From IMG/VR virus record IMGVR_UViG_3300044732_000704, positions 29,435 to 93,434 of that record: 64,000 nucleotides of DNA. The stretch is one strand, 5' to 3'. Position 1 is the first letter of the stretch. Every line of letters begins with the position of its first letter. Both the position numbers and the translations under genes were made by a program. This document shows positions 8,301 through 56,240 of this stretch, in pieces. Under the pieces are notes generated by a model that saw only the letters and a list, made by a program, of their open reading frames with translations, had not been told where the DNA came from and searched no databases. Source of the DNA: a virus.

Positions 8301-8309
8301 CATGTTTGG

Positions 8310-8525: not shown

Positions 8526-8528
8526 AGA

Positions 8529-9131: not shown

Positions 9132-9761
9132 ATGAAACCATTTAATACATTAAACCAAATCGAACTGGCTACTCTGACAGATGAACAAGTGCAAGAATAT
9201 GTTGACTATGCTTGTGCTGAGAAAGGAATTCCGTCAGTGTTCACAGTGATTGAACAACCAGAATCGTTGAAATCGCAATCTGACATTACACTGATGAGTT
9301 TTTCAGAATTTGTTGTAGACGAAGAAACTGGTAAGAAGATTGCTCAAATCTTGGCTGATTCTAATCAGTATAGGAAAGAATACAATAGTAATGCTTATGA
9401 AATTACAACAGCGGATTACTACACTGTTAAACCAAAGCTAATTCGCACTAAGTCACCACAGCTTGTTGCTAAAGAGGCTGTTGAGAATGCTAAACTTACT
9501 CGTGAGTGGAAAGCATATAATGAAGCTTCTGAAGTTCAGAGCCAAGCCATGAATGACCGTCAGAAATTGATTGATGAATTATATGATACGATTTACGAAG
9601 CACGTTCATTTGTTAATAAGAAAGACTCACTGATTTCTGCATACGATAAGTATCTGTCTATGGCAGGCGGTGATCGAGAAATCGCTACACGATTCTTTGA
9701 GAACACGTATAGTGCTACACAATATGAATTAATCCGAGATTACATTTTAGGAAATGTTTAA
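9132..9761 (+). CDS. Hypothetical protein
   Basis: 209 aa ORF with AAGGAG RBS, followed by a terminator. Confidence 0.75.
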   Translation: MKPFNTLNQIELATLTDEQVQEYVDYACAEKGIPSVFTVIEQPESLKSQSDITLMSFSEFVVDEETGKKIAQILADSNQYRKEYNSNAYEITTADYYTVKPKLIRTKSPQLVAKEAVENAKLTREWKAYNEASEVQSQAMNDRQKLIDELYDTIYEARSFVNKKDSLISAYDKYLSMAGGDREIATRFFENTYSATQYELIRDYILGNV

Positions 9762-9782
9762 ATTTATATCTAATATTCCAAT

Positions 9783-9808
9783 AGCCCGCATTAGCGGGCA
9801 TTGTTTTA
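9783..9808 (+). terminator. Rho-independent terminator
   Basis: GCCCGC-ATTA-GCGGGC followed by a T-rich tract. Confidence 0.65.
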
Positions 9809-10104
9809 TGTAGGAAATGATCAATCCGTCATTTCAATCTGCACGGATAAATTTAGAAATTGAGAATAATTTAGTTGGAATGTTGACAGATGCAGGTAGA
9901 ACTCGTTAAGGAATTCAGTGCAAAACTCGACCATTAAAATACGCATCGGCAACTTTTTCATTCTATCCTCGACACGAAAATAGTTGGAAAATCAACAAGT
10001 AATGATTGAAATCCCATTCAATATCCCACACGATCACTAACCCAGTGATTGCATCACTATCAATTCAGCCAGCAACACAGCCAGAAAATTCCAGCAAACG
10101 CAAA

Positions 10105-12680: not shown

Positions 12681-13044
12681 ACAAGATGTCAAAAAGTTTT
12701 AAATTCAATCCAGACAACACAAAGCAGGATAACAAGCAAACCAAGCTCAAAGCAAAAGAGCAAGGCAAGCAAACTAAGCAATTTTGGCGCAATGTAGCAA
12801 GCCAACAACACAAGGATACAATCTAATGGTTATTTACTTCCGTACAAGAACTCAAGCTCGGGTTCATGCTGTAAAGACGGGCAACAAAGCCACGACAACC
12901 AAGGCGGAAAAGGGCTGGGCTGTTAGCTTGAAAAAGAAATAAATAATTTTATAAAAAGGGCTTTACAGCCCTTTTGTTTTGTTCTAAGATTGTTTTATCA
13001 AGTGCTGAAATTGGTTCAGCGCTAGAATCTGAAAGGGTAGAACC

Positions 13045-13305
13045 ATGTTAGTATTAATTTTCGTTTTTATTGCTGTAGCTTTACCGATTATTGTTATCTG
13101 GACAAGCCATGCAATTATCGCTTGGCAAGATGAGAAGCAATCAACAAGCTTTTCAGCAATTTATGCTGAAATGCAACGGGAAATTAAATTGAAAGAGATT
13201 CACCGCCAAGCTTCAGCTGTAGCAATGACAAAGAAATTAGACTGGCAACAAGATAGAGCATACAAAGACGAATACCGCCGTTTATTCTTGGAAAATTGCT
13301 TATAA
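13045..13305 (+). CDS. Membrane-anchored putative pre-early protein
   Basis: N-terminal TM helix; GGGTAGAACC-ATG leader. Confidence 0.65.
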   Translation: MLVLIFVFIAVALPIIVIWTSHAIIAWQDEKQSTSFSAIYAEMQREIKLKEIHRQASAVAMTKKLDWQQDRAYKDEYRRLFLENCL

Positions 13306-34166: not shown

Positions 34167-34736
34167 ATGACTAAATATTATGTTTATTGTCTTAAAAATA
34201 AAGGCGAGTTAGTGTACATTGGTTCTACCACTAAAATTATAGATAGGTTGAAAACTCACAAACGGGACAAGGAATTTGATGAGGTAGTTTACTGTGAGTT
34301 ACCAGACAAAGAAACCATGCTGGAAGTTGAAGCTTTTGGTATTTCTAAAAAGAACCCTTTACTGAACAAAGACAAACCGAACTTTTCCATAAAAGAGCTA
34401 CCAGAGTTTATCAAATGGAAATGCGCTGATCTGAATTTTCTCAGGCATGATGATGTTGACTGGGATTATGGTTTTGAAGTGGATGCCAGTTGGGGGTATT
34501 ACAGTAATGCTATGGATGAGCTTGGGATACCGATTGAATTGGCTACGACAGGGCTTTGTCTGAAACAAATAGATCGGCAAATAGTGGCTGTTTTTGATGG
34601 GTCAGGTAAGCAGCTCATTGATTTTATCGAAGGACAAGGGTATGCTGATGTGGATTCTTACGTTAAAGAGTATTTTCAGACTCATGGTAAAATTTCAATA
34701 GAAAGTTACGAAAAATCCATGAATCAGTTTAATTAA
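34167..34736 (+). CDS. GIY-YIG nuclease-domain protein
   Basis: YYVYCL..LVYIGST...RLKTH...E...I...NPLLN. Confidence 0.8.
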   Translation: MTKYYVYCLKNKGELVYIGSTTKIIDRLKTHKRDKEFDEVVYCELPDKETMLEVEAFGISKKNPLLNKDKPNFSIKELPEFIKWKCADLNFLRHDDVDWDYGFEVDASWGYYSNAMDELGIPIELATTGLCLKQIDRQIVAVFDGSGKQLIDFIEGQGYADVDSYVKEYFQTHGKISIESYEKSMNQFN

Positions 34737-39777: not shown

Positions 39778-40740
39778 TTGAAAGAGAAGCGGAAAGGTAA
39801 ATATCGTCGTCTTACACAAGAACAATTTATTGAAAAATGTAAAGAGAACCAGAAAATAGAGTTAGACTATTCTAACCTTGTTTACCTGACTCAGCACGAG
39901 AAGTGCGAAGTGACTTGTATCAAGCACGGCAACACATATTGGCAAGATGCTCAATCAATGATGTTAGGTGGGATTGGATGCTGTGACTGCCTAAGAGAAT
40001 ATAAATCTAAAGTGGCTTCAAGTAATCTGCACGAGTTTATTAAAAAGTTGGACGCTAAATTCCCTGCACATGGTTTTGATTTTAGTAATGCAAAATACGA
40101 GAGAGCTTCTGTACACATAGAGGTGACTTGTAAGGAAGGTCATACTTTCAGAGCAAAGCCAAATAATTTAATGTCTGGGCATGGTTGTCCAAGTTGCTTC
40201 AATATAAGAAAAGGTCATCTTCACAACAAAGGTCGTGAAAGTTATATTCTTAAATTCAAAGCAGTTCACGGCGATTTATACGACTATTCTACTGTTTCAG
40301 AATTCAAGAACTGTAAACAAAAAGTGATTGTCACCTGCCCTACACATGGTGAATTTAGTATAACACCAGACAATCATGTTCAAGGTAAAGGTTGTCCTCT
40401 ATGTGGTGGAAGTGGTTTTCAACCACAGAAATCAGGAACATTCTACATACTTAAAGTAACTGACGATGTTATAAAGTTTGGTGTTACAAATAATATGGAA
40501 AGGCGTTTGAAGGAAATCAGACGCTACTCTACCTTTGATATAGAGCCTATGTATTTGTTCAATTTTGCTAGTGGTTATACAGCACTGGACATTGAGAATA
40601 AAGTCTACAGAAGTAAAGATATTATAAGAAAGGTAGTTTCGAAAGTAGATATGAAGCACGGTTATGTAGAGACAACGTACCTCTCTAATTTATCTAAGAT
40701 ATTATCTATAGTGTATGAATATGAAGACCAGCTTTTATAG
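39778..40740 (+). CDS. Free-standing homing endonuclease (DUF723-type zinc repeats plus C-terminal GIY-YIG/T5orf172-like domain)
   Basis: Three repeats ending C..HG...GC..C; FYILKV...IKFGVT...RR. Confidence 0.8.
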   Translation: MKEKRKGKYRRLTQEQFIEKCKENQKIELDYSNLVYLTQHEKCEVTCIKHGNTYWQDAQSMMLGGIGCCDCLREYKSKVASSNLHEFIKKLDAKFPAHGFDFSNAKYERASVHIEVTCKEGHTFRAKPNNLMSGHGCPSCFNIRKGHLHNKGRESYILKFKAVHGDLYDYSTVSEFKNCKQKVIVTCPTHGEFSITPDNHVQGKGCPLCGGSGFQPQKSGTFYILKVTDDVIKFGVTNNMERRLKEIRRYSTFDIEPMYLFNFASGYTALDIENKVYRSKDIIRKVVSKVDMKHGYVETTYLSNLSKILSIVYEYEDQLL

Positions 40741-40792: not shown

Positions 40793-42610
40793 ATGAGTAA
40801 CAAAAGACCTAAAGTAACGAACAAGGCTCCTCCAAAAGAGATTGTAGAGATTGGACCTTGTTCTCCAATGCAAGAACTTGTATTCAAAAGAGCTACCGAA
40901 GTAGATTTCATGATCATCGGTGGTTCGCGTGGTAAATAGACCGCTGCCACGTAACCCTGCTAAGTCGGTGAAACCCTAACGTATAGACGAGGGCAATACC
41001 GAGCCGAACGATTAGATTCGTGGGTGTAGAGACTAAAGTAATGTCAAGCGACATGAAAACGTAGGGATGCTTTATTGCATAAGATATAGTCCGACAACAC
41101 CGGAAACGGTGGAAGTGCCTAGCGAACACATAACTGAGACTTGGGCGGCAAGTCTGAAGTAATAACTCAGATACCTCTAATGTGGCGAGATGATCCACGA
41201 TTCAACGGAATGTTTGTCCGTGTTCAGTATGACCAATTGACAGGTGCTGGTGGTTTGTGGGAGACTGCATACAAATACTACCCTCTCCTTGGTGCAAGAC
41301 CTATCAAATCTCCACCACCATATTATCAATTTCCTTCTGGTTGTAAGATTCGATACAAAGCTATTTCAAATCTTTCTGACGCTGAAAAAATGCGCGGCTT
41401 GCAACTTAGCTATTTGGGTGTGGATGAAATCACCCAAGTCCCGAAAGAGGCTCTTTTATTTTTACTTACAACTTTGCGCTCGGAAGCGAACATGAACTCT
41501 GTTTGCATCGGAACGTGTAACCCCCACAGGGAGAACTGGGTATATGACCTAGTTAAGTGGTATCTCGATGATGAGGGTTTTGTTGATAAGGCTAAGAATG
41601 GACAAATTCGTTGGTACGTAGTAAAAGATAATGACTTTATATTTGCCGATAGTGAAGAATGGTTTAGTGAAAACATGCCGGAGACGGTGTATATAACCAA
41701 CCCGTCCACTAATGAGCAAATGTATGTACCACCTAAAAAGTTTTGCTTTGTGCAACTAACAATTTTTGATAACCCAATACTCATCCGACTCAACCCGCGC
41801 TATCTGTCTGAACTTCAAAATTTACCTGAGCATGAAAGAGCCAGCCAGCTTTTCGGAAATTGGCACAGCGAGAGTGACAAGATAAAATTCTTCGACAGAA
41901 AATGGCTCAGGGGACAACATGGGGAAAGGGTCAAAAAATCCTTACCGGAAGGTTGTCAAAGAGTAGTAGCTTGGGATAAAGCTAACACAGAGTATAGTCC
42001 TAAGATTAAAAATACAGACGCAGACTTTACCGCTTGTATTCACATGGCTAAAGACAGTAATGGATTTTACTACATATATGGTGACTTTGCTAAAACTACT
42101 TTCGATGAACACGAACAAGTTTATGGGAAGTTTAGAAAAGCTGCCGGTGAGCGAGACCAATTAATGCTACTGCAAGCCAAACATGATGGTAGAGAGACTA
42201 AAGTAGTATTAGCTCAGGATGCCGGAGCAGACGGAAAGCAAGTGTTTCAAGAGATTGCCAAGAAGTTTGTTGCCGAAGGATTTAAAATATACCCTTCTGC
42301 CGCATCTGGTACAAGAAGTAAATCTTCTCGCTTTGAACCTTTCTTATCTGCGGCACAATCTGGTCTGGTGTTTATAGTAGAAGATAGTTTTCCTGATACT
42401 AGGACGCTGAATGCTTTCTACAGAGAGCTTGAACAATTTCAACCAAACGAAGACGGTAAGTGGCGCAGCAGCAGAAAAATCAAAGATGATTGGGTTGATA
42501 CAACAGCAGATTGTTTTAATTTCCTGTGCCGTGTCAAAACTTACACAGTCCCAAAACTAACCGCTCTCAACGATCCCACAATCAAAGCGCAATATGACCT
42601 TAATTCATAA
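40793..42610 (+). CDS. terL: Terminase large subunit, spliced: join(40793..40933,41144..42610)
   Basis: Splicing restores Walker A GGSRGGGKS; Walker B GVDEITQ, GTCNP, nuclease AWDKA and DDWVD. Confidence 0.9.
40934..41143 (+). mobile_element. Group I intron in terL (210 nt, no ORF)
   Basis: Exon ends in U, intron ends in G; IGS GCCACG pairs with CGTGGT; AAGTCGGTGAAA/AATACCGAG, GAGACTA and AAGATATAGTCC core. Confidence 0.9.
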
Positions 42611-42622
42611 TCTGAGGGGATA

Positions 42623-44396
42623 ATGTCAGAAACAATTCAAATTGAGAAAGCTGAATCTAATCCCTCTAGCTCAGACAGTCGTCTTCGCTTAGGGGAGATC
42701 GGCAATCCATATCTAAAAGCCATCGGGGGCTACATTGAAGAATCTGCTAAGAAAGAATTGCAGTTTCCTCATAGCCTCACCACATACGATAAGATGGCTT
42801 CTACCTCTGCTGTTAGCCAAGGCTTAACCGCTGGTGAAGTATTCCTTACGAAGTCCCTACTTGCTACAAAGTTTATCGCAGGTGTATCAGGAAGTCAAGA
42901 GTCAAAAGATTTTGCTGCCTTCCTCAACTGGAACATCAAGAACTTCGTCGGTAACAGTTGGTACGATGCCATCACAAATATTATCACATTCCGTAAATAT
43001 GGATTCGCTTGGCTTGAGAAAGTCTTTGCAAAGAATGATAGTATTAAGTGGTCTGGTAAATATAAATACAAATACGCAAAGCTTGCTCCTCGCGCTCAAA
43101 AGAGTGTTCGTGAGTGGGTGTTTGATGATGCTGTATTGAAGCGAGACTTAGTTGGTTTACATCAATGGATGCCAGCTACAGTTATTGGACAAAGTAATAT
43201 CAACCCTTTCACTGTACAAAACTTAACAGATAAATTTGTTCGTAGAGAAAAGTTTATGTTGTTTAGTTGGAACAGTACAGGTAACAACCCTCAAGGTAAA
43301 TCAGATCTATACGACTGCTTTAAATCTTGGAAAGAGCTTGAAATGATTACAAGCTATGAGGTTGTTGGGGTGAGCAAGGACTTGGGTAGAACTGCCCCCT
43401 TGTGTAGTAATGCACATTGAATAACTTTTCTAATTCGGTGAAACTCTTACCAAGTAATGTTGGAGACAATACCGAGCGAAGCTCAGTAATGAGAACGTGT
43501 AACGACTAGGCGTAAGCCGTAGGGCTAAGTAGCTCGAAATGGGAAGCATCCTTATAGGATGAAGATATAGTCTGAACTTTATGGAAACATAGAGAAGCGA
43601 ATAATGTCGCTGGAGTGAATTAACGACTCACTTTGAACAAATGGGTGTCCTTGTATTACGTGTCCCGAATGACCACATCAATAAAGCTGCTGAAGATGAT
43701 CAGAGCTTAGAAGCAAAAACACTCAGAGCATTACAAAAGAATGCTGCTGCTATTCATGCTGGCGATCAAACATATATCCTCTTAGGATCAGATACACATG
43801 GTGAAACAGGTAACGGTAAATACGTTTACGATGTTGAACTGAAGGGTGTCGATGGTGGCAGTAAAGCCTATAAAACCTCTGAACTAATCGAAGCTCGTAA
43901 GAAAGATATTCTTAACGTATTAGGTGCTTCCTTCCTTCTGGTTGGTCAAGGTGATACAGGTTCACACAGTCTATCAGATAGTTCTCGCAGTGTCCATGCT
44001 TTCTACATGGAACGTATGCTGATGTATATTAAAACAGTATTTGAGCGTGAGTTTGTTAAGTCTCTTGCAGACATTAATGAACTGAAACTTGAAGAAGATG
44101 ATATGCCAGTGATGACGTTTGGTGAGCTGGATGAAGCTGACCCAGAGAACAATGCTAAAGTGGTTCAGTTGATGGCTGGTGTTGGTATGATGGTTAAAGA
44201 TAAGTCAATCATTATTCAAGCACACAAGATGACTGGGTTCGATACAACAGAGATCGAGAAGCTCACTGAAGAAGAACTGTTAGCTAAGCTCACCCCTGAC
44301 ACAGCCCGTGTTGGTGAGAGTGGTGGTTCTAGTGGTACAGGTACAAGTCAGTTGAAGAATCCTAACTCTACAAGAAATATGGCAAATTCTGCATGA
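42623..44396 (+). CDS. Portal protein, spliced: join(42623..43387,43644..44396)
   Basis: DUF935-like portal after terL (YGFAWLEKV, GNNPQGKS, GSHSLS); splicing gives SKDLG|GVLVL in frame. Confidence 0.88.
43388..43643 (+). mobile_element. Group I intron in portal gene (256 nt, no ORF)
   Basis: AATTCGGTGAAA/AATACCGAG, AACGACTA and AAGATATAGTCT core; U at 5' exon end; terminal G. Confidence 0.9.
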
Positions 44397-44920
44397 ACAA
44401 AGAAAAACTAATCAAAATGTTTACTGACTTGTTGGACATGGCTATCGGTGATAGTGAAAACCATAAGCAAGTTATTGAGAGCGATGTCACTACACCAGAA
44501 GGTGTTCAGGTACGTAAGTCTGTGGACGTTGAAGAACGTCGAGCATTGTTCGTTGTATTAGCTCCACAAGAGTCTGAGGCAGAAACAGAAGACTTACATG
44601 GTGATGTTTACTTTGACCAAGACGTTATCGAAGCTTGTCGCTCATTCAACGTTCACTGCATGAAAGCTAATCTGATGCACAGCGTAATGCTTGATTCTGA
44701 CTTAGCCATTATCGAGCAGTCTTATACTTCTCCAGTTGAATTTATTATCGAGAATCCAGAAGGTGAGCAAGTGACTATTCGCAAGAACACTTGGTTGCAA
44801 GAATGGTACTTCCCTGAACCAGATGAATTAGCTGAAGATGTAATTTGGCCTAAAGTGAAGGATGGTACGTTCACAGGCTTGAGCGTTTATTGTGAAGCTT
44901 ACGGGCAGGAAATTAAATGA
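44393..44920 (+). CDS. Prohead serine protease (XkdF-like)
   Basis: DLHGD, NLMH, FTGLSV motifs; synteny. Confidence 0.8.
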   Translation: MNKEKLIKMFTDLLDMAIGDSENHKQVIESDVTTPEGVQVRKSVDVEERRALFVVLAPQESEAETEDLHGDVYFDQDVIEACRSFNVHCMKANLMHSVMLDSDLAIIEQSYTSPVEFIIENPEGEQVTIRKNTWLQEWYFPEPDELAEDVIWPKVKDGTFTGLSVYCEAYGQEIK

Positions 44921-45855
44921 CAATTAGCAAACAGAAAGCAAAGCGTAAGCTTTTCAACTTTGACTTCGATACACATGGTGCTCATGTAGCCCTTGTGTCT
45001 AAAGACCAAGGAAATGCCGCGAATGGGTACAAACTAATTTGTACAAAAGGGACCAATGTTGGTATCCAACCAACTGACGTAGTGAAAGTACAGAAAGCAT
45101 TAGAACAGATTACTGTAACAATGTCAATGGAAGAATTCTTACGTAAGTTCTTTGATATGTGGAGTTCTGACGCGGAAACCCTTACAAAGCTGTTAGGTTT
45201 TGAAACAGAGTTTGAAGCAAACAAAGCTGAACGTGAATCTTCTGATGGTGAATACGATTGGGAGAAAGAACATGAGAAGTGGATTACAGAGCGTGTAGCT
45301 CAGTTCACTATTATGAAGTCTCTCAGCGAAAACCCAAACCAAACAATTAGTGATGAAGACTTTATTGCTATCACTACTATCCAGTCTCAAATCGAGAAAT
45401 CTTTACAACAACAAAACGAGGAAGACCCCTTGAAAATCCAAGTAGAAAAAGCTCGCTACGAGCAATTAGAACAAGTCGAGCAAGCTCACGAAGCTGCCGT
45501 AGCAGAAGCTACTCAACTCAAAGTTGAGAAATCTGCTCTGGAAGTGGAAGTAGTTGAACTGCGTAATCAAGTACAGAAAGCTAAAGAAGAAAAAGAAGCT
45601 GCTGAATTTGAAGCATTCCAAGAAACTCTGAAAGACTTAGTATCTGCTGAAGAATTAACTACTGTTGCTAAATCATTATTCGTAATGAAAGCCACCAGCC
45701 CAGAAGCGGCTGAAGTAGTGATTAAATCTCTGCAAGCTAAAAAAGAACTGGTAGAAAAATCTGACCTGTTCGAAGAAACCACATCTGGTGATGAAGTGTC
45801 TCCAGAACAAGTTAAGAAAGCTGCATTCGCAGCAGAATTAAACAAACCTTACTAA
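44917..45855 (+). CDS. Capsid scaffolding/maturation protein
   Basis: HVALV..AANG N-terminus; acidic coiled-coil C-half. Confidence 0.7.
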   Translation: MTISKQKAKRKLFNFDFDTHGAHVALVSKDQGNAANGYKLICTKGTNVGIQPTDVVKVQKALEQITVTMSMEEFLRKFFDMWSSDAETLTKLLGFETEFEANKAERESSDGEYDWEKEHEKWITERVAQFTIMKSLSENPNQTISDEDFIAITTIQSQIEKSLQQQNEEDPLKIQVEKARYEQLEQVEQAHEAAVAEATQLKVEKSALEVEVVELRNQVQKAKEEKEAAEFEAFQETLKDLVSAEELTTVAKSLFVMKATSPEAAEVVIKSLQAKKELVEKSDLFEETTSGDEVSPEQVKKAAFAAELNKPY

Positions 45856-45874
45856 TTATAAAGGATAAACAATA

Positions 45875-46369
45875 ATGGCTGTTATTGCAACTTCTAGTCC
45901 AGTTCTGTCAGATGTTCTGATGCAGGACATCTTCCCATTGGTTGAAAACTTCAACTACCAACATAACGTAAACGTTGATGAAGCTTCTACCAAAACCTAC
46001 CGTGTAGGTCAAGTTGTTATTTGGGACAACACTCTGGTAGCTTACCGTCAACCTGTTGCTGGTGATTTCACTGGTGATGCAGTCAACGTTCCAGCGAACG
46101 ATGGTGCTGTAGCTAACGGCGCTAAATTTGGTGTCGTAGTTGGCTTCGATGCTCTGGGTGATGTTCGTGGTGACGTATCTGTTACTACTGCTGGTGACAA
46201 AGTGGTTCTGCTGTTCCGTGGTGCTGCTTCTGTTAAGAAATCAGGCTTACGTTTTGATGCTGGCTTAAACGCAGCTAAACAGAACTCTCTGATTGCACAA
46301 CTCGAAAAACAAAACATCGCTGTCAAGTCTGTACTGGGCGCTGTTACTTCTACTTTCTACGGCGTCTAA
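45875..46369 (+). CDS. Head decoration protein
   Basis: Between scaffold and MCP; high-expression codon bias. Confidence 0.75.
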   Translation: MAVIATSSPVLSDVLMQDIFPLVENFNYQHNVNVDEASTKTYRVGQVVIWDNTLVAYRQPVAGDFTGDAVNVPANDGAVANGAKFGVVVGFDALGDVRGDVSVTTAGDKVVLLFRGAASVKKSGLRFDAGLNAAKQNSLIAQLEKQNIAVKSVLGAVTSTFYGV

Positions 46370-46404
46370 TAGCCGTTATTATTTCTCAATAAGGATTCTA
46401 AATA

Positions 46405-47481
46405 ATGGCTCAATTCGGTCGTTTCCAAATTCAAAAATCTGTAACTCGTGATCTGGGTAACTTGAACAGTCTGCATGACTTCTCAAGCACTCTGTTAGAG
46501 AACAGCCCTAACATCCCTTCTCTGCTGACTGAGTTAATCCCTCTGGATGTAGAGTATATGAATACCTCTACTTGGGAACATGACGACAAAGTAATGCGTG
46601 TTGCTTTACCAAGTGACAAGTCTTACTCTGACCGTGGTGATAACTTTGATGCTCGTGAGAGTTCAAAAACTCACTTATTCAAAATCCCTTCATTCGGTAT
46701 TCAAACACACATTCGTCCACAAGACGCTCTGCGTAGCCGAGTGCCGGGTACTAAAGACACTCTGGACTCAATGGATCGTCTGGTAGCAAATGACATTCGT
46801 GACATTCGCCGTTCATTCGCCCTGTTACAAGAGAAGTGTTTAGCTCACCTGATCACCACTGGTACTTCATACGTCCCTAACGGTTCAGCTCCAGTAACTG
46901 ACTTCTATACTGAATACGCAGGTACTTCTGCTGCTGCTCGCCCAACAGTTAACTTCCAACTGTCTGACGCTACTAAATATCCAGCAGAAGTTGGTGAAGA
47001 TGCTCGTGCATTAATCAACGAAAACCTGTTAGATGGTCAAACCGTTTCCGGTTATGTTGCCCTGTGTGGTCGTAACTTCTTCAAAGATCGTATCCATCAC
47101 CCGAAAGAAGAACAAGCTCGTGTGGACCGTACCGACATGTGGGGTCAAGACCCACTGCTGAAACGTCTGGCTAACTTCTCTAAACAGTATCGCATGTACG
47201 TTGGCGCTGATGACATCGTTTACATCCAGTACGATGCTAAGATTGGTGGTGTTGACCTGATTAACACTAACGAAGCATACATCATGCCAGCCGGTGTTGA
47301 AGGTATGTTTGCTCGTCGCTATGCTCCAGCGGAAACTATGTCTTACGTTAACACTGTAGCTCTGCCAGAATACGCATGGCGTTCAGACAATGAACACACT
47401 GGTACTCACATCATGTACGAAAGTAACTTTGGTGATTACCTGTTGTCTCCATTGACAATCATCAAGGCTACCAAGTCTTAA
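46405..47481 (+). CDS. Major capsid protein (phage capsid E family)
   Basis: 358 aa, strong codon bias, YAPAETMSYVNT motif, followed by a terminator. Confidence 0.88.
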   Translation: MAQFGRFQIQKSVTRDLGNLNSLHDFSSTLLENSPNIPSLLTELIPLDVEYMNTSTWEHDDKVMRVALPSDKSYSDRGDNFDARESSKTHLFKIPSFGIQTHIRPQDALRSRVPGTKDTLDSMDRLVANDIRDIRRSFALLQEKCLAHLITTGTSYVPNGSAPVTDFYTEYAGTSAAARPTVNFQLSDATKYPAEVGEDARALINENLLDGQTVSGYVALCGRNFFKDRIHHPKEEQARVDRTDMWGQDPLLKRLANFSKQYRMYVGADDIVYIQYDAKIGGVDLINTNEAYIMPAGVEGMFARRYAPAETMSYVNTVALPEYAWRSDNEHTGTHIMYESNFGDYLLSPLTIIKATKS

Positions 47482-47489
47482 TTGGGGCG

Positions 47490-47515
47490 GGAGGGCTTGT
47501 CCCTCCCTTCTTTCT
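47490..47515 (+). terminator. Terminator after MCP
   Basis: GGGAGGG-CTTGT-CCCTCCC followed by TTCTTT. Confidence 0.75.
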
Positions 47516-47532
47516 CACAGGAACAATATTAG

Positions 47533-47958
47533 ATGGCAATTGATTTAGACTTTAACTGTGAGTTAGCTCAAGTCAGGGTTAACATAGGCGACCCTTCAGG
47601 TGAACATATCACCGACAATGCAATTTCTTCTGCTTTGGTTAAATACAATAATGATGTGGTTAAAGCATCCATTCTTTGTATGGAAGCAATCAAGGCACAT
47701 TTTAGTACACTTGCTGACAGAGAGAAAGTTGGTGAAGTGGAAATCGAATACAAACGTCTGTATGAGCGCTACAAGCAATTACTAGACGACTTCGTTAAAG
47801 CTAATACATCACGATACAGTGCTGGTATTTATATCGGTGGCGTGTCTCTCAGTGAGCGTAATCGTGTCATTGAAGACCAAGATGTATTCACAGGCTATGA
47901 CCAACAAGATTGGACAGACATTATGCAATCTCGCAGAGGTCTGGTGGAGATTAAGTAA
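47533..47958 (+). CDS. Head-tail adaptor
   Basis: QVRVNIGDP, IYIGGVS; synteny. Confidence 0.7.
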   Translation: MAIDLDFNCELAQVRVNIGDPSGEHITDNAISSALVKYNNDVVKASILCMEAIKAHFSTLADREKVGEVEIEYKRLYERYKQLLDDFVKANTSRYSAGIYIGGVSLSERNRVIEDQDVFTGYDQQDWTDIMQSRRGLVEIK

Positions 47959-48101
47959 TGGCTATTATTAAAGTGGTGGATAACACTACTGGTGAAGTTA
48001 AAGAATGGAGTACCGATGACGAGCAAAGTAACGTTCAAGAGAAACGGAAACCTCGCAAAGCTGGTAGCAAAACTCCAGAAACTGAACAGACAGAAGATTG
48101 A
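47958..48101 (+). CDS. Small hydrophilic protein (47 aa) overlapping the next gene
   Basis: TAATG coupling and GGAG RBS; MAIIKVVDNTTGEVKEW... Confidence 0.45.
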   Translation: MAIIKVVDNTTGEVKEWSTDDEQSNVQEKRKPRKAGSKTPETEQTED

Positions 48102-48504
48102 AGTAGGTTATTTCCAGTCACAGGGAATACACACTTCATCTAAATTACATTACACAGAATTGATGCGTATACACGAACATGGTGTTGGTGTGTATGTCAG
48201 ACCTGTACTCGGCTCTGAGAAATCATATAACTACTCAGATACAATTGTAGGTCAAATGGAAGCAGGAAGCTTCAAGAAATTATTAAAAGGTTGGTTGTGT
48301 GATTATGTGAAGAATCCTAATTTCACTAATGACCACCTAGCTGACAAGTTCGGTATGTGGGCTGTTCATTCCGCTAATGAAATCTTCGGTAATCCAGATG
48401 TCCTCTGGGTAACTACTAATGAAACACCATTGATTGATACATCTGAGTTAGCTGATAACTTCGCTTGGAAAGTTAGTTGGAGAGGGACGGTGCATACACT
48501 ATGA
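48016..48504 (+). CDS. Neck/tail completion protein
   Basis: IHEHG, RPVL, TPLIDTSEL motifs. Confidence 0.7.
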   Translation: MTSKVTFKRNGNLAKLVAKLQKLNRQKIEVGYFQSQGIHTSSKLHYTELMRIHEHGVGVYVRPVLGSEKSYNYSDTIVGQMEAGSFKKLLKGWLCDYVKNPNFTNDHLADKFGMWAVHSANEIFGNPDVLWVTTNETPLIDTSELADNFAWKVSWRGTVHTL

Positions 48505-48866
48505 GACTACTTAATACAAGCTCTGTTAAAGTTACACGTTATGGTGAACAAGCTCTTGATGACAATGGTAACGTTGTAGTGACACAGAAACAAACATTCA
48601 CCGTTACCGGTAATTGGCAACCAGTACCTAACGTACAGAAAGGTGAAGTAGCTAAAGTATTACCTGAAGGTGTTAAGATTGAAGATGTATTAGTATTCTT
48701 CACTAAATCAGAGCTAAAACCGGATAACGAAAAGACTGGTGTTACTGGTGATGAAGTAGAGCTAGACGGTTGGCGATACAAAGTAATTCAAGAGCGTAAT
48801 TGGTCAGTGCAACTTCCACGTATTCGACACAGAGAATTCTTGTTGGTAAGGAAGACTAAGCTATGA
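48501..48866 (+). CDS. Head closure protein
   Basis: GNWQP, LPEG motifs; synteny. Confidence 0.65.
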   Translation: MRLLNTSSVKVTRYGEQALDDNGNVVVTQKQTFTVTGNWQPVPNVQKGEVAKVLPEGVKIEDVLVFFTKSELKPDNEKTGVTGDEVELDGWRYKVIQERNWSVQLPRIRHREFLLVRKTKL

Positions 48867-49504
48867 GTTATACAAACAGTCTTAATATCAACACACAACA
48901 AAATGGTATTATCAACTTAGTAAAACAAGTTGTTGGTACACGATTAGCTCAAATCAAATCATCTTCTAATGTTGGACAATTAGTTCCAGCAGTAATAAAG
49001 AAACGTTCTACAGACAGAGCATCTACAAATCAACCAGCCGTTGATTTACCTTACCCTTACTGCTTAGTTGATTTCCTCAATGCTTCCTTCTGGGGTGGTG
49101 CTGAGCTAGTCAATGAGAAGTATGCAGATAATGGTAACAGATTATACGAGACTGATTACATTGTCAAGTTCGTAATAGATTTTGTCGGAAGACAGACAGA
49201 CGATGTTCACAGTATAGCGTTAAGTCTTCATAAAGCCCTTACAACATCATTCTTCAGAAACAAAGTATCTGACCTCACAGGAGGAAGATTGTTTAAGATT
49301 TCTAATGATGTTAAGCGAGGGATGATACAGCGTCAAACAGAGTGGGTTGATTTATCCACAATAGTTATTGACATTACATTCAGAGATGTTCTTGAAATTG
49401 ATTCTGAAGGTAATATCGTACAAATCATTCTCAACGGGGAACTACATGATCATTTCATTGACCCTGATCCTATTTTAATAAACATAAACACTAACGAGGT
49501 TTAA
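48863..49504 (+). CDS. Tail terminator/neck protein
   Basis: PYPY motif; directly before sheath. Confidence 0.6.
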   Translation: MSYTNSLNINTQQNGIINLVKQVVGTRLAQIKSSSNVGQLVPAVIKKRSTDRASTNQPAVDLPYPYCLVDFLNASFWGGAELVNEKYADNGNRLYETDYIVKFVIDFVGRQTDDVHSIALSLHKALTTSFFRNKVSDLTGGRLFKISNDVKRGMIQRQTEWVDLSTIVIDITFRDVLEIDSEGNIVQIILNGELHDHFIDPDPILININTNEV

Positions 49505-49506
49505 TA

Positions 49507-50853
49507 ATGGCTGGTGCTATTACCGACATTGCAAATGTCACCATCTCTTTACAAGGTGTTACTGTTAGCCGTCAGGGTTATGGTACTCCGGTATTCTTAG
49601 CGAAACACCGCTTCACTCAGGAAGTAGTTACCGCTTATTCTAATCTTTTATCTGTTGGTCAAGTATTCCCTACTACTCACAGTGTATACAAAGCTGCTAC
49701 TCAATTCTTCGCTAACACCCCAGTTGGTAAAGCGTTTAAAGTTGGTCAGATTGAAGCTGATTTAAAGCTGACTCCTTCCGCTGTTGCTACTGGTAAGATT
49801 TATAGCTTCACAATCGCTTCAGGTGCTGTATCGGCTAATATCTCTGTTACAGCTACTGGTTCAGATACAACTACTACAATCGCTACAGCTATTGCTGCTG
49901 CTGTTGAAGCATCTACTGTAGGTGCATTAGTTGCCGCTACAGCAGCTACTGGCGTTGTTACAATCGCTCCTACAGGTACTAACAAGTTTGCTGTAACTGC
50001 TCTACTGAACGTAACAGATTCTTATACCTCTACAGCTACTGCTCCACAAGCTCTGCAACGTGTATTAGACGCTGACTCAGATTGCTACTTCATTGCATCA
50101 GAAGACCATTCAGAAGCATGGGTATTAGCTATGGCTGCTGATGTAGAAGCCCGTAGTAAACTGTATGCTGTTGCTGTTGAAGGTGCTACTAACTACGGTA
50201 CTTACGTTAAAGGTGCTGCTGTATCAGGTGACATCTTAGGTAAGCTGTCAGATGCTGGTTACTTCCGTACATTCGGTTTGTATCATCAACGTGCTGATGA
50301 AGACTTCGTGGAATTAAACTACGTAGGTCACAATGCTCCGTTTGATGCTGGTTCAGTAATTTGGACTAACAACGTAGTTGCTCTGGCTGCTTCTCAGAAT
50401 GTAGACGGTAATGTCCTGACACAAACACAACAGAATAATTTGTCTGCTCGTAATGCTACATTCATTCGTTTAGAAGGTGGTCAGAATGCTACTCGTGGTG
50501 GTCTGGTTGCTGGTGGTGAGCGCATTGACAACATCCGTGGTCGTGATGCTTTAGAGAATGAAATGAAAGCTAACCTGACTGCTCTGTTACTGTCTCAGAA
50601 AGGCGGTAAGCTGCCATACAACAACAACGGTATCAACGCTGTTCGTTCTACCATTGCTAAAACTCTGGATCTGTTTGTTCGCCGTAGCTTCATCAATGAC
50701 AACTACTTAATCACTTTACCTGATGAGCGTGACGTATCCGCTGCGAAGAAAGGTTTAGGTCTGTTGGACGAAGGTTACTTCAAAGCTGAGTTGTCTGGTT
50801 CAATCGAATTGATTGACATCACCGGTACACTGGCAATTTCTTTTAACGCTTAA
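49507..50853 (+). CDS. Tail sheath protein (DUF3383-like)
   Basis: IDNIRGRDAL, KLPYNNNGI motifs; 448 aa. Confidence 0.88.
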   Translation: MAGAITDIANVTISLQGVTVSRQGYGTPVFLAKHRFTQEVVTAYSNLLSVGQVFPTTHSVYKAATQFFANTPVGKAFKVGQIEADLKLTPSAVATGKIYSFTIASGAVSANISVTATGSDTTTTIATAIAAAVEASTVGALVAATAATGVVTIAPTGTNKFAVTALLNVTDSYTSTATAPQALQRVLDADSDCYFIASEDHSEAWVLAMAADVEARSKLYAVAVEGATNYGTYVKGAAVSGDILGKLSDAGYFRTFGLYHQRADEDFVELNYVGHNAPFDAGSVIWTNNVVALAASQNVDGNVLTQTQQNNLSARNATFIRLEGGQNATRGGLVAGGERIDNIRGRDALENEMKANLTALLLSQKGGKLPYNNNGINAVRSTIAKTLDLFVRRSFINDNYLITLPDERDVSAAKKGLGLLDEGYFKAELSGSIELIDITGTLAISFNA

Positions 50854-50865
50854 TTGGAGTAAACA

Positions 50866-51360
50866 ATGGCTTATATTAAAACTTACTCACCTCAAAGTGT
50901 GCGCATCTCTTGGGGTGGGGTTATGATCACGGGTTACGCAGATGGTGAATTCGTTACTATCACCCCTAACTCCGACTTAACTGACGAGGTTGTGGGCGCT
51001 GCCGGCGATGTGGCACTTACAAAGATTGCCAACTACACAGCAATGGTAACAATCACTCTGTTACAGAATGCTGAGTGTAACTTATACTTATCAAACATCT
51101 ATGCTGCACAGCAACGTGCTGACGATATTGTTCGTGAGAACATGACCATTGTAGACCCATCTGGTTCAACCCTGTATGAATGCCGTGACGCACACCTAAA
51201 AACTGCTGCTCCGGTAACATTATCGGATGGTCAGAACGCGAAAAGCTGGCAATTCTTTGTCTCTAACATGATTCCTGTTTCTTCTAACAGTGAAATCACT
51301 CAAGCCCTCGGCATTGCGTCCCAAGTCGCAGCCGCAGCCGAACTTCTTGGTGTAGGCTAG
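50866..51360 (+). CDS. Tail tube protein
   Basis: TYSP..V, ITGYADG, ITLLQ motifs. Confidence 0.85.
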   Translation: MAYIKTYSPQSVRISWGGVMITGYADGEFVTITPNSDLTDEVVGAAGDVALTKIANYTAMVTITLLQNAECNLYLSNIYAAQQRADDIVRENMTIVDPSGSTLYECRDAHLKTAAPVTLSDGQNAKSWQFFVSNMIPVSSNSEITQALGIASQVAAAAELLGVG

Positions 51361-51368
51361 TAATGATT

Positions 51369-51392
51369 AGCCCCGCTTTGTCGGGGCTTTTT
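51369..51392 (+). terminator. Terminator after tail tube
   Basis: AGCCCCG-CTTTGT-CGGGGCT-TTTT. Confidence 0.8.
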
Positions 51393-51402
51393 ACTTTAAG
51401 AG

Positions 51403-51975
51403 GTGATTGTGTTGAACTTTAACGGTAGTGGTTGGTCACTATTCAAAGATAGGTCGGTTGCCGTATACAACCCAAGGTTAGTTTCTTTAGTATTAGGAAG
51501 TCAACCTATCACTGAATTTGCTCCTGACCAGATGGTTAACATTTCCTACGCTGCTGAGAATATCGGCGTAGTAAAGGGTATCGATGGTAACACGGCATTA
51601 CAGAGACAAACAAACAAAGACGCTATTGTAACATTCACTCTACTTCAGATGAGTCAGAACAATAAGTGGTTGTTAGATATTCAGCGTAATATGCAAGACC
51701 CTAGAAAACCTATTGAGCTTCCTCAATTAGTGTTTACAGATTATAACTTAATGGTGAGTTGGAAGTCAACATCATCATTCATTCAGAAGCATCCAGACCA
51801 ATCCTATACGAATATGGCTGGTGCTACAACATGGTCGGTGTACTGTATTGACATGCAGCCTAACCAGAACATTAAACTAGATGATTCATTATTGACGAAT
51901 GAGCAAATCCTATTCCGTAAAGTAGGTGAAGCGGTGAAGTCTGTTGGGAAACAGATTACATCAGTATTCTCGTAA
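51403..51975 (+). CDS. Tail tube paralog / tube initiator
   Basis: VYNP, ITEFAPD, GIDG, FTLLQMS motifs parallel the tail tube. Confidence 0.7.
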   Translation: MIVLNFNGSGWSLFKDRSVAVYNPRLVSLVLGSQPITEFAPDQMVNISYAAENIGVVKGIDGNTALQRQTNKDAIVTFTLLQMSQNNKWLLDIQRNMQDPRKPIELPQLVFTDYNLMVSWKSTSSFIQKHPDQSYTNMAGATTWSVYCIDMQPNQNIKLDDSLLTNEQILFRKVGEAVKSVGKQITSVFS

Positions 51976-51996
51976 TGAACAAAGGAGAACTTTCAA

Positions 51997-52440
51997 ATGC
52001 AAATGCCAGCAAATAATTTTCGTATGACAGAGATTGACGGAAGTCAATATCAAATTAAACTCTTAGATGGTATGAGTGGTTTCAAAACCTCAGTAGAATT
52101 ATCTAAAGTGTTGTTACCGTTAGTGGGTGAATCATTCGATGCTTCACGACATGATGATGTGTTTCATGGAGCACCTAAAACATTCCGTGAGATGGCACTT
52201 TTACTGTTACAACAATTAGACCAAATCAATTTAGAAGATATGATCTTCAATCGTCTGTTAGCTTATTTAGTTAAAGATGGTGTTCAAGTTAAGTTGGCTG
52301 ATATTATCATGGGCCAATATGAAGTGTTGATTGAATTAGTAGCCTTTGCTATTGAACAGAACTTCGGGAGTCTTTTCAAGGGAAAGGGTTTAATTTCTCG
52401 TTTTCAAGAGAAGTTTCAGAGCATGACCAGCCCTACTTAA
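51997..52440 (+). CDS. Tail assembly chaperone (G-like)
   Basis: Upstream of tape measure; contains G GGA AAG slippery site. Confidence 0.8.
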   Translation: MQMPANNFRMTEIDGSQYQIKLLDGMSGFKTSVELSKVLLPLVGESFDASRHDDVFHGAPKTFREMALLLLQQLDQINLEDMIFNRLLAYLVKDGVQVKLADIIMGQYEVLIELVAFAIEQNFGSLFKGKGLISRFQEKFQSMTSPT

Positions 52441-52655
52441 ATCAAGTATTGGCTGCGATAAAGAAAGGCACCCTTCTTGATGATGAAGATTGGTTCTTTT
52501 ATCAAATATCTGAAATGACTGAATTCAAAGTGAGTGCATGGGAATTAATGAACGTGTACACATATATTGAATGCTTGAAACTACGAGAATATCTGACAAT
52601 CAAATATACAAAAGAAGAAGCATATCGAAAGGATGCTAAACTGCGGGAGAAATAA
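52380..52655 (+). CDS. -1 frameshift extension of the tail assembly chaperone (GT-like)
   Basis: GGGAAAG at 52380-52386 in X XXY YYZ register; -1 frame open to 52655. Confidence 0.8.
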   Translation, partial: GKGFNFSFSREVSEHDQPYLNQVLAAIKKGTLLDDEDWFFYQISEMTEFKVSAWELMNVYTYIECLKLREYLTIKYTKEEAYRKDAKLREK

Positions 52656-55600
52656 TGTCCAGCCCAATTGAAGATTTTATTGTCAGCTTGGGATTTGATA
52701 CATCAAAAGTCAAATCTCAAATTCAAGATTTACACAAATCGTTAGAAAAGTTGGCTGTTGGAGTAGATGCTAAACGTGTTAAAAACGGATTAAAAGCTGA
52801 GAAGCAAATATCCGATAACGCTGTAAAAGTTGCTGAAACAACAGCTAAGAAAAAAGAAGACATTGAAAAGAAAACTGTAAAACAATCTATTGCGTTACAG
52901 GATAGTCATGTCAAAGCTCAAATTAAACTGCAAGAAAAACTAGCTAAACAAAAAGCTAGAGACTTCAATCTTGTTGAAAAAGCTTTACAGAAGACACAGA
53001 AGAAAGCGATTGAACGACAAGAAGCGTTGTATCGTTTAAACAATAAAGCCAAACCAGCACAGAATCCATCACAATCTTTTATAGAATCAGCAAAGAGACA
53101 ACAAGCTGTTCGTGGATTATTGAATAATGAACAGAACCCTCAGCTTAAAGCTATGGGCAATTACTATCGTAAGATGCAATCTGACCAGTCGGCTTTAGGT
53201 ATTGCAAACGAACGATTACGTAAACGCAGGTCACTAGGTACTCTCACTAACCTACAAGCTTTCCGTGATCTGAAGTCTAGTGGACCCGAAGGAAGACAAC
53301 ACGCATTACAAGCTCTATTGTCAGCAAGACAAGCTGCTCGTGGTGGTTCATTAGAAAAGATTAAATCCATTCGTGCTACTGTAATTAAACTGAATAGAGA
53401 TTTGAAAGAATCTAATGCTCGTGTAGCTACATTGCTGACAGCACCAACAGGTTCTGCTACTAACAACACATTCAACGCTATCAAGAAGGGTGGTGGTTTT
53501 CAGAACTACACTTCTCAACAACAGTCGATGTTAGTACAAGGCGCTCAGAAACAAACCACACAGAAAGGTGCTGACGCATTTGTTCGCGCAGCAAGAGATG
53601 TAGAACGCTATCGTCCTCTTGGTGGTGCTAAGATTGATGCAGCTATTGCATCAGGTAATATAGATCAGCTTAGAACAGTGACGAAAGAACTGTCTAGGAT
53701 GAACCACGAGCTTGAGAAACAGCGTAGGCATAGTATGGGTGCTGCTGCTGCAATGAGTAGCTTACAGGACTCTACACGCAATATGGTGCGAGAGTATGCT
53801 AGTTTGTATGCTTTGTTTGCAGGTACTACGTATTTCAAAGAACAGATTAAAGCATTAGATTCAATGAATGCTTCTGTATTAGCTGTGTCAGATAATTCTG
53901 AGCAAGCTGCCGCTACAGTAGGTTATCTGAAAGATGTTATTGTACAAAATGGTTTGTCGTTAAAAGATACGACTAAAGACTTTGTTAAACTTCGTGCTGC
54001 AATGCAAGATAAATATTCTCTTGACCAAACTAAGCAAGCATTTGAATCATTAACTAAGTCTGGTATTATTCTTCAGTTGTCACAAGATGATATGGCTGGT
54101 ACAGTAAAAGCTGTAGCACAAATGTTCTCTAAACAACAAGTAATGGCTCAGGAACTTAAAATTAGGTTCGCTGCATAGAAATGTGCAGAAAAATATATTC
54201 CTTTAATTGCGGGGAAATCTTGACAGGTGTTGACTACCGTGTATAATATACAAAGCAAACAGTAATGTGTTTGTGATGGTAAAAACGTCAACAATAGAGA
54301 CAATCCGCAGCGAAGCAGAAAATTCTCTGAAAATCAGTAGGAGCAGAAATGTTTGTAAATAAGATAAAAGTTATAGTATTGAAAGATTACCCAAATTATG
54401 CAGTAAGTGCTTGTGGTAAAGTTTTTAATATAAAAAGAAACAAAGAGATCGCACAATCAATTAAGGTGATAAATAATTATCCTAGTTGTTATGTGAGATT
54501 GTCCGTAGAAGGTGTCGTGTACAATAGAAAAGTACACAGATTAGTTCTTGAAGCATGGCAAGGTTGTCCAGACAAAAAGCTGCAAGTCAACCACAAAGAC
54601 GGTAACTCTTTAAACAATAACGTTGAAAACCTTGAGTGGGTAACAGCCAGTCAAAATCAACGACACGCAGTTTCTACAGGACTTAAAGGTAAAGGCTCAG
54701 ACTTATACAATGCGAGTCTAACTGAAGACGCTGTACATAAAGTTTGTCAAATGCTTGTCAACGGACACAGAATCTGTGATATAGCTAAGGAAGTTAACAC
54801 ATCCAAAGGTGTTATAAGATTGATACGTGCCGGCGACTGTTACTTCCACATAAGGCAGCTTTACAAAATAGAACATAACTATCCCAATGACTTCTCTGTG
54901 AATACTGTCAAGTGGGTTTGTTATAGAATTTTAGACGGATTGGGTGATAAAGAAATTGCGAAACTCAGTAGCAATGACAAGCTCAGTACGATAGAGATAA
55001 AACGAATTAGATATAAGATTCGTTATAAAAACATTTCTGATGAATTTTTCTGAACGTTCAACGGCCAGTCGAAAGACGTAGACTCAAGTGAGTCGAAATG
55101 GGGAACCCTTAACATTAAGTTGAAGGTGAAGATATGGTCTGATCTTACAGGAGACTGTAAGCAGCTTGAATAAAGCGGGGAAGGGTTAACGACCCTTCCT
55201 GAACATAATGTAAAGAACAGCTAGGCGACAGATTACCAATAGCAATGAGAGCCTTAGAAAAATCCACAGGTAAAACAGCTAAAGAGTTGTTTAAAATGAT
55301 GGAGCAAGGACAACTTGGTGCCGAATATATTCTTCCGTTCGTATTACAAATGGAGAAGTTGGTAAACGTCAATGACGCTTATACTAAATCTCTTGATAAG
55401 CTTGGTATTGTAGAGAACAGAATGAAAGCAGCTTTCTCTGTAACTGCTGCTGAGAACTTAGATAAAGGTGGTTTTACTGAAGGTCTGAAAAACTTCTTCA
55501 AAACAATAACTGATCTGGTTAACAATAATGAAGATACACTACAGCGTCTTGGCAGAATATACAAGAAAGTGTTTGATGTACTGTCAGTTGTAGTGAGAGG

Positions 55601-56240
55601 TGCTACACAATGGTTTGCTTCTTTCTTACGTTCTGTAGAAACGGTAGGTCAGGCAATAGGATGGTTTGTTGATAACCCTCTGGCGGCTTTAATAGTGGCT
55701 ATGCCTATTCTGATTACTAATATGAAGAATTTAGGTTTAGTGATGGCTGCTGCTTTCAAAACACCTCTCGTTATTCTGACTACAATCGTAGGTGTACTTG
55801 ATGAAATCAGAGCATACTTTGATGATGATGTAGTTGGTTTGTTTGATGATAAGGGTTGGTCTGAAGAAAAGAGTAAGAAAGTACACGCCCAACGACGAAT
55901 GATGATGGGTATGGGTAGTGCTGAAGACGCTAAACTTGTTGGCGGTGATTTCACAGTAGGGCCATTAGCTCAATTTGGGCAAGACATCGCTAAGAATATG
56001 CCCGTTGCTTCTCAGACAGAACACGGTTCAGTAATACTTTCGGCACTGGAAGGTTTTGCTAAAACATCCTTCGATTATACTATGGCTGGATTGAAAGACT
56101 TTACATCTTGGTATTCACAAAATACTGTTGGTGGTAATATCAGTATCACAATCAATTCACCTGACCCAGAAAAAGCTGGTGAAAGTGTGAAGAAGGAATT
56201 AGAGCGTATGACTGGCATGCAATCTGTTGGAGTAAGGTAA
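52655..56240 (+). CDS. Tape measure protein, spliced: join(52655..54156,55211..56240), 843 aa
   Basis: Splicing restores the QMFSK..VMAQELKEQLGDRLP tape-measure motif. Confidence 0.88.
54157..55210 (+). mobile_element. Group I intron in tape measure gene (1054 nt) carrying an HNH endonuclease
   Basis: P1 GAACT/GGTTC; AATTGCGGGGAA/AATCCGCAG; AACGGCCA and AAGATATGGTCT; terminal G. Confidence 0.9.
54349..55053 (+). CDS. Intron-encoded HNH homing endonuclease (NUMOD4-HNH type)
   Basis: YAVSACGKV, VHRLV, VNHKDGNSLNNNVENLEWVTASQNQRHA. Confidence 0.92.
   Translation: MFVNKIKVIVLKDYPNYAVSACGKVFNIKRNKEIAQSIKVINNYPSCYVRLSVEGVVYNRKVHRLVLEAWQGCPDKKLQVNHKDGNSLNNNVENLEWVTASQNQRHAVSTGLKGKGSDLYNASLTEDAVHKVCQMLVNGHRICDIAKEVNTSKGVIRLIRAGDCYFHIRQLYKIEHNYPNDFSVNTVKWVCYRILDGLGDKEIAKLSSNDKLSTIEIKRIRYKIRYKNISDEFF

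Follow-up and report, generated by a model that had tools for sequence, protein, structure and literature searches.

In a 64,000-nucleotide stretch of viral DNA (hereafter the window; bases 29435-93434 of IMG/VR record IMGVR_UViG_3300044732_000704), the genes for the large terminase subunit (terL), the portal protein and the tape measure protein (TMP) are each interrupted by an insertion. The full record of 93,434 bp carries direct terminal repeats, is rated complete, and represents a lytic-type 93-kb freshwater (lake-water) myophage. From their sequence anatomy, the precision of their junctions, their homology to introns known to splice and their occurrence in some but not all near-identical phages, we hold with high confidence that the three insertions are self-splicing phage IA-type group I introns, selfish mobile DNA and not regulators, residing in single-copy virion genes. 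They are further examples of a kind of selfish element that has already been shown to splice in the vibriophage ICP1 (Barth et al. 2023, PMC10448857).

Anatomy and junctions of the three introns

An initial annotation of this DNA had placed exact in-frame splice junctions at 40933/41144, 43387/43644 and 54156/55211, and all three were confirmed by direct reading of the sequence, by the spliced frames and by uninterrupted alleles in relatives. When the exons so delimited were joined by script, open frames of 535 (terL), 505 (portal) and 843 (TMP) amino acids were obtained, in each of which the terminal codon is the sole stop. The last base of exon 1 is T in every case (40933, 43387 and 54156) and the last base of every intron is G (41143, 43643 and 55210); the TMP split falls after the second base of a codon (54156). 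By script, P1 helices whose U-G pair marks the splice site were recovered for the terL (7 bp), portal (4 bp) and TMP (5 bp) introns, together with P10 pairings of 5, 3 and 3 bp, respectively, immediately adjoining P1 in the guide sequence. The features that had been named earlier (guide sequence, catalytic core, U just before the intron and G as its last base) are thus found at all three introns.

The search with a group I covariance model that had been proposed as a check was run with Rfam RF00028 over the whole 64 kb on both strands (threshold E<=0.1), and returned exactly three matches, all at the three intron sites and nowhere else in the window. The portal intron matches the full-length model (80.6 bits, E 6.9e-19), the terL intron scores 47.7 bits (E 5e-9), and the TMP intron scores 28.2 bits for its 3' core (E 0.0035, up to 55161). 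A local search added a 20-bit match over P4-P6 of the TMP intron (54208-54353); the match comes in two parts because an open reading frame (ORF) splits the model. Each of the three introns therefore combines an RF00028 core, P1 with its U-G pair, a terminal G with P10, and restoration of the exon frame. Hairpins inserted between P7 and P3' are visible in the Rfam alignments of the portal and terL introns, and these, together with the similarity of the portal intron to Twort introns, suggest the phage IA type and, tentatively, subgroup IA2.

The precision of the junctions is further documented by protein profiles and by natural alleles. Profile matches continue across the breaks in TMP (phrog_7817 reaches 416 and resumes at 418; TMP_3 reaches 110 and resumes at 116) and in the portal protein (phrog_30239, 267 then 269). 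Three uninterrupted terL alleles of 535 aa (P0001, P0129 and P0123) are identical to the spliced product at 533, 530 and 523 of 535 residues; their residues 1-47 are identical to exon 1, and the Walker A loop, which the intron divides in the window, is continuous in them. An uninterrupted portal allele (P0130, 505 aa) is identical at 498 of 505 residues, and 10 of 10 uninterrupted portal homologues, ranging from 36% to 99% identity, are gapless at residues 255/256. For TMP, the uninterrupted allele P0179 (843 aa) is identical at 730 of 843 residues, and the junction is crossed without a gap in 6 of 6 uninterrupted homologues. These near-identical intron-less alleles were compared as gene-called proteins from other contigs. 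Among 19 related viral loci, terL is continuous over residues 47/48 in 13, uninformative in 5 and split in one (L006, genome G001), where a 210-nt insert lies exactly at residues 47/48. In the same 19 loci, the portal gene is continuous over residues 255/256 in 18 and split in one (L015, genome G004), which by sequence reading has the same junction as the window.

All three genes are single-copy in the genome and present in split form only, no second copy having been found. Therefore packaging, head assembly and tail assembly very probably depend on splicing, much as the initial annotation had proposed for packaging and the tail. Gene callers miss this arrangement: terL is given as 48 + 476 aa, portal exon 1 as a 265-aa ORF, portal exon 2 as a 251-aa ORF starting from the last ATG of the intron, and TMP in separate pieces; cultured relatives such as phage H101 are affected likewise. 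Recognition of the introns restores three essential virion proteins, and its value lies mainly in annotation and population genetics. Coordinates of all features are collected in Table 1.

Table 1. Exons, introns and endonuclease genes of the interrupted terL, portal and TMP loci (window coordinates)
Feature	Position	Strand	Description
Free-standing homing-endonuclease-like gene	39778..40740	+	320 aa counted from a TTG (start provisional); lies immediately 5' of terL exon 1
terL exon 1	40793..40933	+	47 codons, ends inside Walker A motif; strong AGGAG ahead of ATG
terL group I intron	40934..41143	+	210 nt, no ORF
terL exon 2	41144..42610	+	488 codons + stop; Terminase_6N, Terminase_6C; phrog_979 E 5e-131 from profile position 177
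Portal exon 1	42623..43387	+	255 codons; phrog_113 portal profile 27-240; phrog_30239 to 267; Portal_Mu
Portal group I intron	43388..43643	+	256 nt, no ORF; IA-type (predicted); two small hairpins between P7 and P3'
Portal exon 2	43644..44396	+	250 codons + stop; phrog_30239 from 269, phrog_113 from 254
Tape-measure exon 1	52655..54156	+	500 codons + 2 bases; TMP_3 profile 8-110; phrog_7817 to 416
Tape-measure group I intron	54157..55210	+	1054 nt; endonuclease ORF in P6 loop
Intron-encoded HNH homing endonuclease	54349..55053	+	234 aa; own AGGAG five bases ahead of ATG
Tape-measure exon 2	55211..56240	+	1 base + 342 codons + stop; phrog_7817 from 418, TMP_3 from 116

Mobility and relationships of the introns

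The sequences indicate present or recent mobility of the terL, portal and TMP introns, because close relatives carry or lack each of them. Besides this presence and absence, which was observed for all three, an endonuclease gene lies inside the TMP intron and another beside the terL intron; no associated endonuclease was found for the portal intron, either inside it or adjoining it. The polymorphism can be seen within clusters of nearly identical gene calls. The 10 members of a terL cluster at 90% identity comprise three uninterrupted 535-aa proteins, three distinct 48-aa exon-1 calls, each continuing into the intron by one codon, three calls of exon 2 and a short piece that is unrelated. Among the 15 listed of the 18 members of the portal exon-1 cluster, 11 read ten codons into an intron of the window type, whereas the remaining four end right at the junction, pointing to another type of intron in that position.

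Changes clustered near the insertion sites leave a further mark. When the portal protein is compared with the intron-less P0130, six of the seven differences fall at residues 257-280, just past the site, and none in the preceding 255 residues. Between the TMP and P0179, 59 of 113 differences are located within residues 401-560, around the site. These clustered differences look like co-conversion, or like exchange bounded by homing sites. Near-identical alleles with and without the introns in lake metagenomes, with changes beside the sites, make a natural system for the study of homing and co-conversion. It was also observed that intron-less terL calls (P0001 and P0129) and intron-bearing portal calls (P0194 and P0199) match in the size of their longest contigs (5733 and 31355). 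This is suggestive only of genomes that have the portal intron without the terL intron, and of independent assortment of the introns.

The terL intron belongs to a widespread type. It is identical at 184 of 210 positions (88%) to the intron of G001 at the same site, whereas the flanking exons share 69% and 61% DNA identity and the proteins 60%. The intron is better conserved than its exons, and it has therefore moved between lineages. To the ICP1 terL intron, 170 of 210 positions are identical. By blastn, the type was found in 118 phage records, 109 of which are Vibrio phages, and in the records inspected it adjoins the 5' side of the annotated terL coding sequence (CDS); in Vibrio phage 424E50-1, it follows a gene annotated "GIY-YIG nuclease" and a 114-nt "terminase" CDS. 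ICP1 itself has five RF00028 matches, of which four fall in its TMP locus and the fifth immediately precedes terL exon 2. When six members of this type were aligned (the window, G001, ICP1, Pseudoalteromonas phage PH357 and two further Vibrio phages), 17 of the 36 pairs predicted for P3-P9 proved compensatory. The gene directly upstream of terL exon 1 matches phrog_681 "endonuclease" (E 9.5e-64), passes the Pfam cut-offs for DUF4379 and DUF723, and is 27% identical over 212 aa (E 8e-19) to the ICP1 gene abutting terL exon 1, which for its part passes the T5orf172 cut-off (20.5 vs 20). As a separate observation, the 28 terL gene calls that come next in similarity (56-77% identity) include nine of full length, 16 that start between residues 45 and 60, and one whose alignment opens precisely at residue 48; this suggests frequent intron occupancy, incomplete contigs being an alternative.

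The TMP intron carries its own endonuclease gene. A perfect 7-bp stem (54316-54322/55046-55052) encloses the 234-aa ORF and its flanking bases are those of P6 of the portal intron, and therefore the ORF lies in the P6 loop, with its stop codon within the 3' strand of the P6 stem. The product contains an HNH_3 domain (PF13392) at residues 60-105, well above the cut-off (49.4 bits vs 24.8), and NUMOD4 remains below its own (19.1 vs 23.4). It matches phrog_59 (E 3e-47) and is identical at 111 of 222 positions (50%) to ORF80, the HNH gene in the TMP locus of ICP1. By phmmer, its residues 15-112 also match, at a distance, an "HNH homing endonuclease" of known structure (PDB 1u3e, E 5e-7), which we take to be I-HmuI, the nicking enzyme of the SPO1 polymerase intron. 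Relatives have introns at nearby points of the same TMP motif, at residues 486/487 in G004 and at about 490 in H101. In G001, the closest full-length relative, an 1146-nt insert with two to three RF00028 matches (L028 1511-2656) is located at about residues 498-500 of TMP, and it may represent tandem or twin introns.

The initial annotation had regarded the portal and TMP introns as related because of shared peripheral elements. The motifs are present, and an alignment of the last ~150 nt of the two introns, which takes in the terminal elements named there, scores z = 14.9 relative to shuffled sequences, so that the relationship holds, with much of the similarity belonging to a broader family of phage IA-type introns. 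The portal intron is ~73% identical to Twort-type introns over 75-91% of its length, and 524 phage records match it. Portal introns recur at two sites, one at residues 255/256 (window and G004) and one at ~327/329 (G004 and L014, and apparently G005/L021 and H101). G004 carries introns at both (L015, 12324-12655 and about 12869-13240). The portal gene of this phage group is thus hit by introns repeatedly, at no fewer than two sites. No paper on a portal intron was found in our literature searches, whose coverage excluded subscription journals and supplements, and a search for introns in Rheinheimera phages returned nothing relevant. The portal site and the natural presence/absence polymorphism are the most useful points of this study.

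The annotation had also presented phage introns as lying mostly in genes of DNA metabolism, with portal and TMP introns less commonly reported. This is outdated for terL and TMP, both of which were shown to be spliced in ICP1 (PMC10448857). TMP is reported to be often interrupted across phages (PMC10448857), terL introns are described from rV5, LL-H, Moonbeam, KASIA, Twort-like and Jug phages (PMC3606486, PMC4299906, PMC8541194, PMC5618024, PMC12880540), and capsid and tail genes are interrupted in Cluster J mycobacteriophages (PMC3706429).

Alternative explanations and a proposed course of splicing and homing

Several observations weigh against self-splicing introns with associated homing enzymes. 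The portal intron alone exceeds the RF00028 gathering score of 50 bits, with terL (47.7) and TMP (28.2+20) below it; the portal P1 is short, at 4 base pairs; and thermodynamic z-scores from minimum-free-energy folding are weak (portal -2.6, terL -1.6) and were not relied on. In the gene upstream of terL, the nuclease domain is under the Pfam cut-offs (T5orf172, PF10544, 16.6 vs 20, E 0.012; MUG113, 17 vs 22.3). CapR is likewise below cut-off, and the order of zinc-finger/CapR followed by T5orf172 is that of the ICP1 gene. By sequence reading, the terL insertion point also lies two codons (6 nt) downstream of the ICP1/Vibrio/PH357-type point in the Walker A loop. Contigs of RNA libraries X19 and X20, both from one study, join position 43387 to the start of exon 2 in a relative ~95% identical to the window, and the first 15 bases of exon 2 differ from the window while encoding the same five residues. 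Such a joint may come from an intron-less genome rather than from spliced RNA, as DNA can contaminate RNA libraries, and it is ambiguous because intron-less DNA alleles exist. A contig of X23 keeps the 3' part of the portal intron. The RNA runs had no cover over the terL or TMP junctions and are thus silent on splicing there.

The two Rfam scores below the gathering score, together with the ambiguous RNA contigs, would fit introns that are dead relics, with splicing lost and the record being that of a defective or mis-assembled phage. We find this barely credible. The genome is complete, the cores, P1/P10 pairings, terminal G and exon frames are intact, and many distinct intron-bearing variants exist. 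Moreover, ten lake-water metagenome runs, possibly including the source of the record, hold the window DNA at 0.99-1.00 of sampled words, and in lake run X11, 37 of 40 contigs match the window at >=99% identity. It is also highly unlikely that the genes function in pieces, with the insertions retained and each protein made of two assembling polypeptides, as is reportedly the case for a split ribonucleotide reductase of an Aeromonas phage. An in-frame TTG (41141-41143) and ATG (43641-43643) do end the terL and portal introns directly ahead of exon 2, and gene callers accordingly predict separate ORFs there. However, neither is preceded by a Shine-Dalgarno sequence, whereas the real starts have AGGAG; the break in terL cuts the Walker A loop; at the TMP junction, exon 2 offers no start codon in frame; the insertions covary and are recognized by the model of a ribozyme family; and the homologous insertions of ICP1 are spliced (PMC10448857). 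By sequence reading, a terminal in-frame TTG or ATG is also a feature of introns in ICP1, G001 and G004. An intein and a simple pseudogene were both ruled out, as the insertions contain stops and are recognized as members of an RNA family, while the exons keep their frames.

If the insertions are self-splicing group I introns, as we consider them to be, each would fold after late transcription, and its guide sequence would bind the end of the 5' exon to form P1 with the U-G pair. Excision would proceed through two transesterifications begun by free guanosine, and the exons would be joined in frame, so that terL would regain its Walker A loop, and the portal protein and TMP would regain conserved motifs. 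Virion production would presumably be impossible otherwise. It could be asked whether splicing, besides being a property of selfish DNA, times or gates virion assembly, a checkpoint that the initial annotation had suggested and for which we found no support. The location of all three introns in essential single-copy late genes speaks for such a role. Each intron, however, is dispensable in near-identical relatives, the introns seem to vary independently of each other (suggestive only), and no regulatory signal is seen in the sequence, so that we regard a checkpoint as quite unlikely.

The clustered differences and the homologies of the endonuclease genes suggest how selfish introns of this kind may spread. 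During co-infection, the HNH enzyme, and probably also the T5orf172-like enzyme, would cut intron-less alleles, and repair would copy the intron plus flanking exon sequence. For the TMP intron, mobility would be driven by the I-HmuI-like HNH gene carried in its P6 loop. The ORF-less terL intron and the free-standing T5orf172-like gene appear to form the "collaborative homing" layout described for ICP1, and the ORF-less portal intron was probably spread by recombination or with an endonuclease supplied in trans.

The initial annotation had gone further and proposed a weapon against intron-less relatives. This is reasonable where an endonuclease is present, that is, for the TMP intron and the neighbor of the terL intron, and the principle has been published, with a competitive benefit of such cutting demonstrated in another phage (PMC11620839). 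It does not extend to the portal intron, which is without an endonuclease. We put forward only tentatively, and with some doubt, that the set of introns and endonucleases is a device of inter-phage competition in the lake, in which the enzymes would cut virion genes of intron-less co-infecting relatives and so drive intron spread and flank exchange, and in which the terL intron would have moved by 6 nt with a re-tuned guide. The 6-nt shift is common to the window and G001 (in comparison with L042, L050, L051 and L052), and the guide sequences differ to suit the shifted terL sites, with intron cores ~80% identical. Under the same tentative reading, the shift from the ICP1-type site would show a phage group I intron gaining a new site in nature.

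Genome setting and comparison with known systems

The window has ~38% G+C and zero tRNA genes, and a myovirus late module at 39.8-63.5 kb comprises terminase, portal, XkdF-type protease, major capsid, sheath, tail chaperone, tape measure and baseplate genes. Among cultured phages, even the closest are only distantly related: Alteromonas phage PT11-V22 has a portal protein 51.8% identical, and Pseudoalteromonas phage H101 a terL protein 43.5% identical. Hosts of the relatives belong to Alteromonas, Pseudoalteromonas, Vibrio and Rheinheimera. A near-identity DNA search with both regions against 50,697 phage records gave two short intron-core matches only and no close relative. Single-protein searches for related loci found none in viral contigs and none in metagenome contigs, and an alignment-based metagenome scan found four loci with ~48% portal identity, all apparently uninterrupted. 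The related genomes give 4, 7, 0, 4 and 5 RF00028 matches.

A fourth group I intron was observed outside the window, in nrdA, the gene for the large subunit of class I ribonucleotide reductase (G000:C1:11392-11648, minus strand, RF00028 43.5 bits; also locus L003, about 1450-1745, minus strand). The Ribonuc_red_lgC profile reaches 212 and picks up again at 218 across it, and its 3' end is similar to those of the portal and TMP introns. Within the window, a TnpB-like ORF at 311-1405 on the minus strand (OrfB_IS605 and a Cas12f1-like TNB domain, E 4e-24) represents an IS200/IS605-type element or else a nuclease that has been domesticated. A GIY-YIG endonuclease gene standing by itself at 34167-34736 on the plus strand (27.9 bits vs a cut-off of 22.6), distant from any intron, is a candidate trans-acting homing enzyme.

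The introns can be compared with known systems. The portal intron resembles the Twort orf142 introns and other phage IA2 introns, with ~73% identity over 75% of its length, and has the small P7-P3' hairpins; the match in record MT151386.1 is covered by a gene annotated "tail tube protein." Staphylococcus phage Twort differs from the window phage in the host gene of the intron and in its host phylum. H101 (Shandongvirus), the closest cultured relative by terL, has seven RF00028 matches, five of which stand in tandem in the TMP region, while the portal gene holds one (8019-9836 and 126220-126518; L027, L034, L048 and L049). Its RefSeq entry gives the portal gene as two CDSs, with a 77-bit RF00028 match between them that overlaps the end of the first and with no intron annotated, and gives TMP in pieces around an "HNH homing endonuclease." In contrast to the window phage, the terL gene of H101 is uninterrupted, and its portal intron lies downstream of residue 315 of the window portal protein, near ~327/329 and not at 255/256. 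With I-HmuI (PDB 1u3e), the TMP intron endonuclease has the HNH_3 catalytic domain in common, and the relation is distant.

ICP1 is known from RNA-seq and RT-PCR to splice its terL gene, in which a short N-terminal exon, adjoined by a T5orf172 endonuclease gene, is followed by an intron without an ORF, and to splice three introns with HNH-3 endonuclease genes from TMP (Barth et al. 2023, PMC10448857). The window phage shares with it the short exon 1, the placement of an ORF-less intron within the stretch coding for Walker A, and an endonuclease gene immediately 5' of exon 1, although the terL proteins are just 30% identical. In TMP, both phages have an HNH_3-bearing group I intron in the conserved central motif, and the last ICP1 exon starts near residues 496-500 of the window TMP; ICP1 has three introns (four RF00028 matches) there, whereas the window phage has one. 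The ICP1-type pairs of terL intron with endonuclease and of TMP intron with HNH gene thus extend well beyond vibriophages to freshwater phages.

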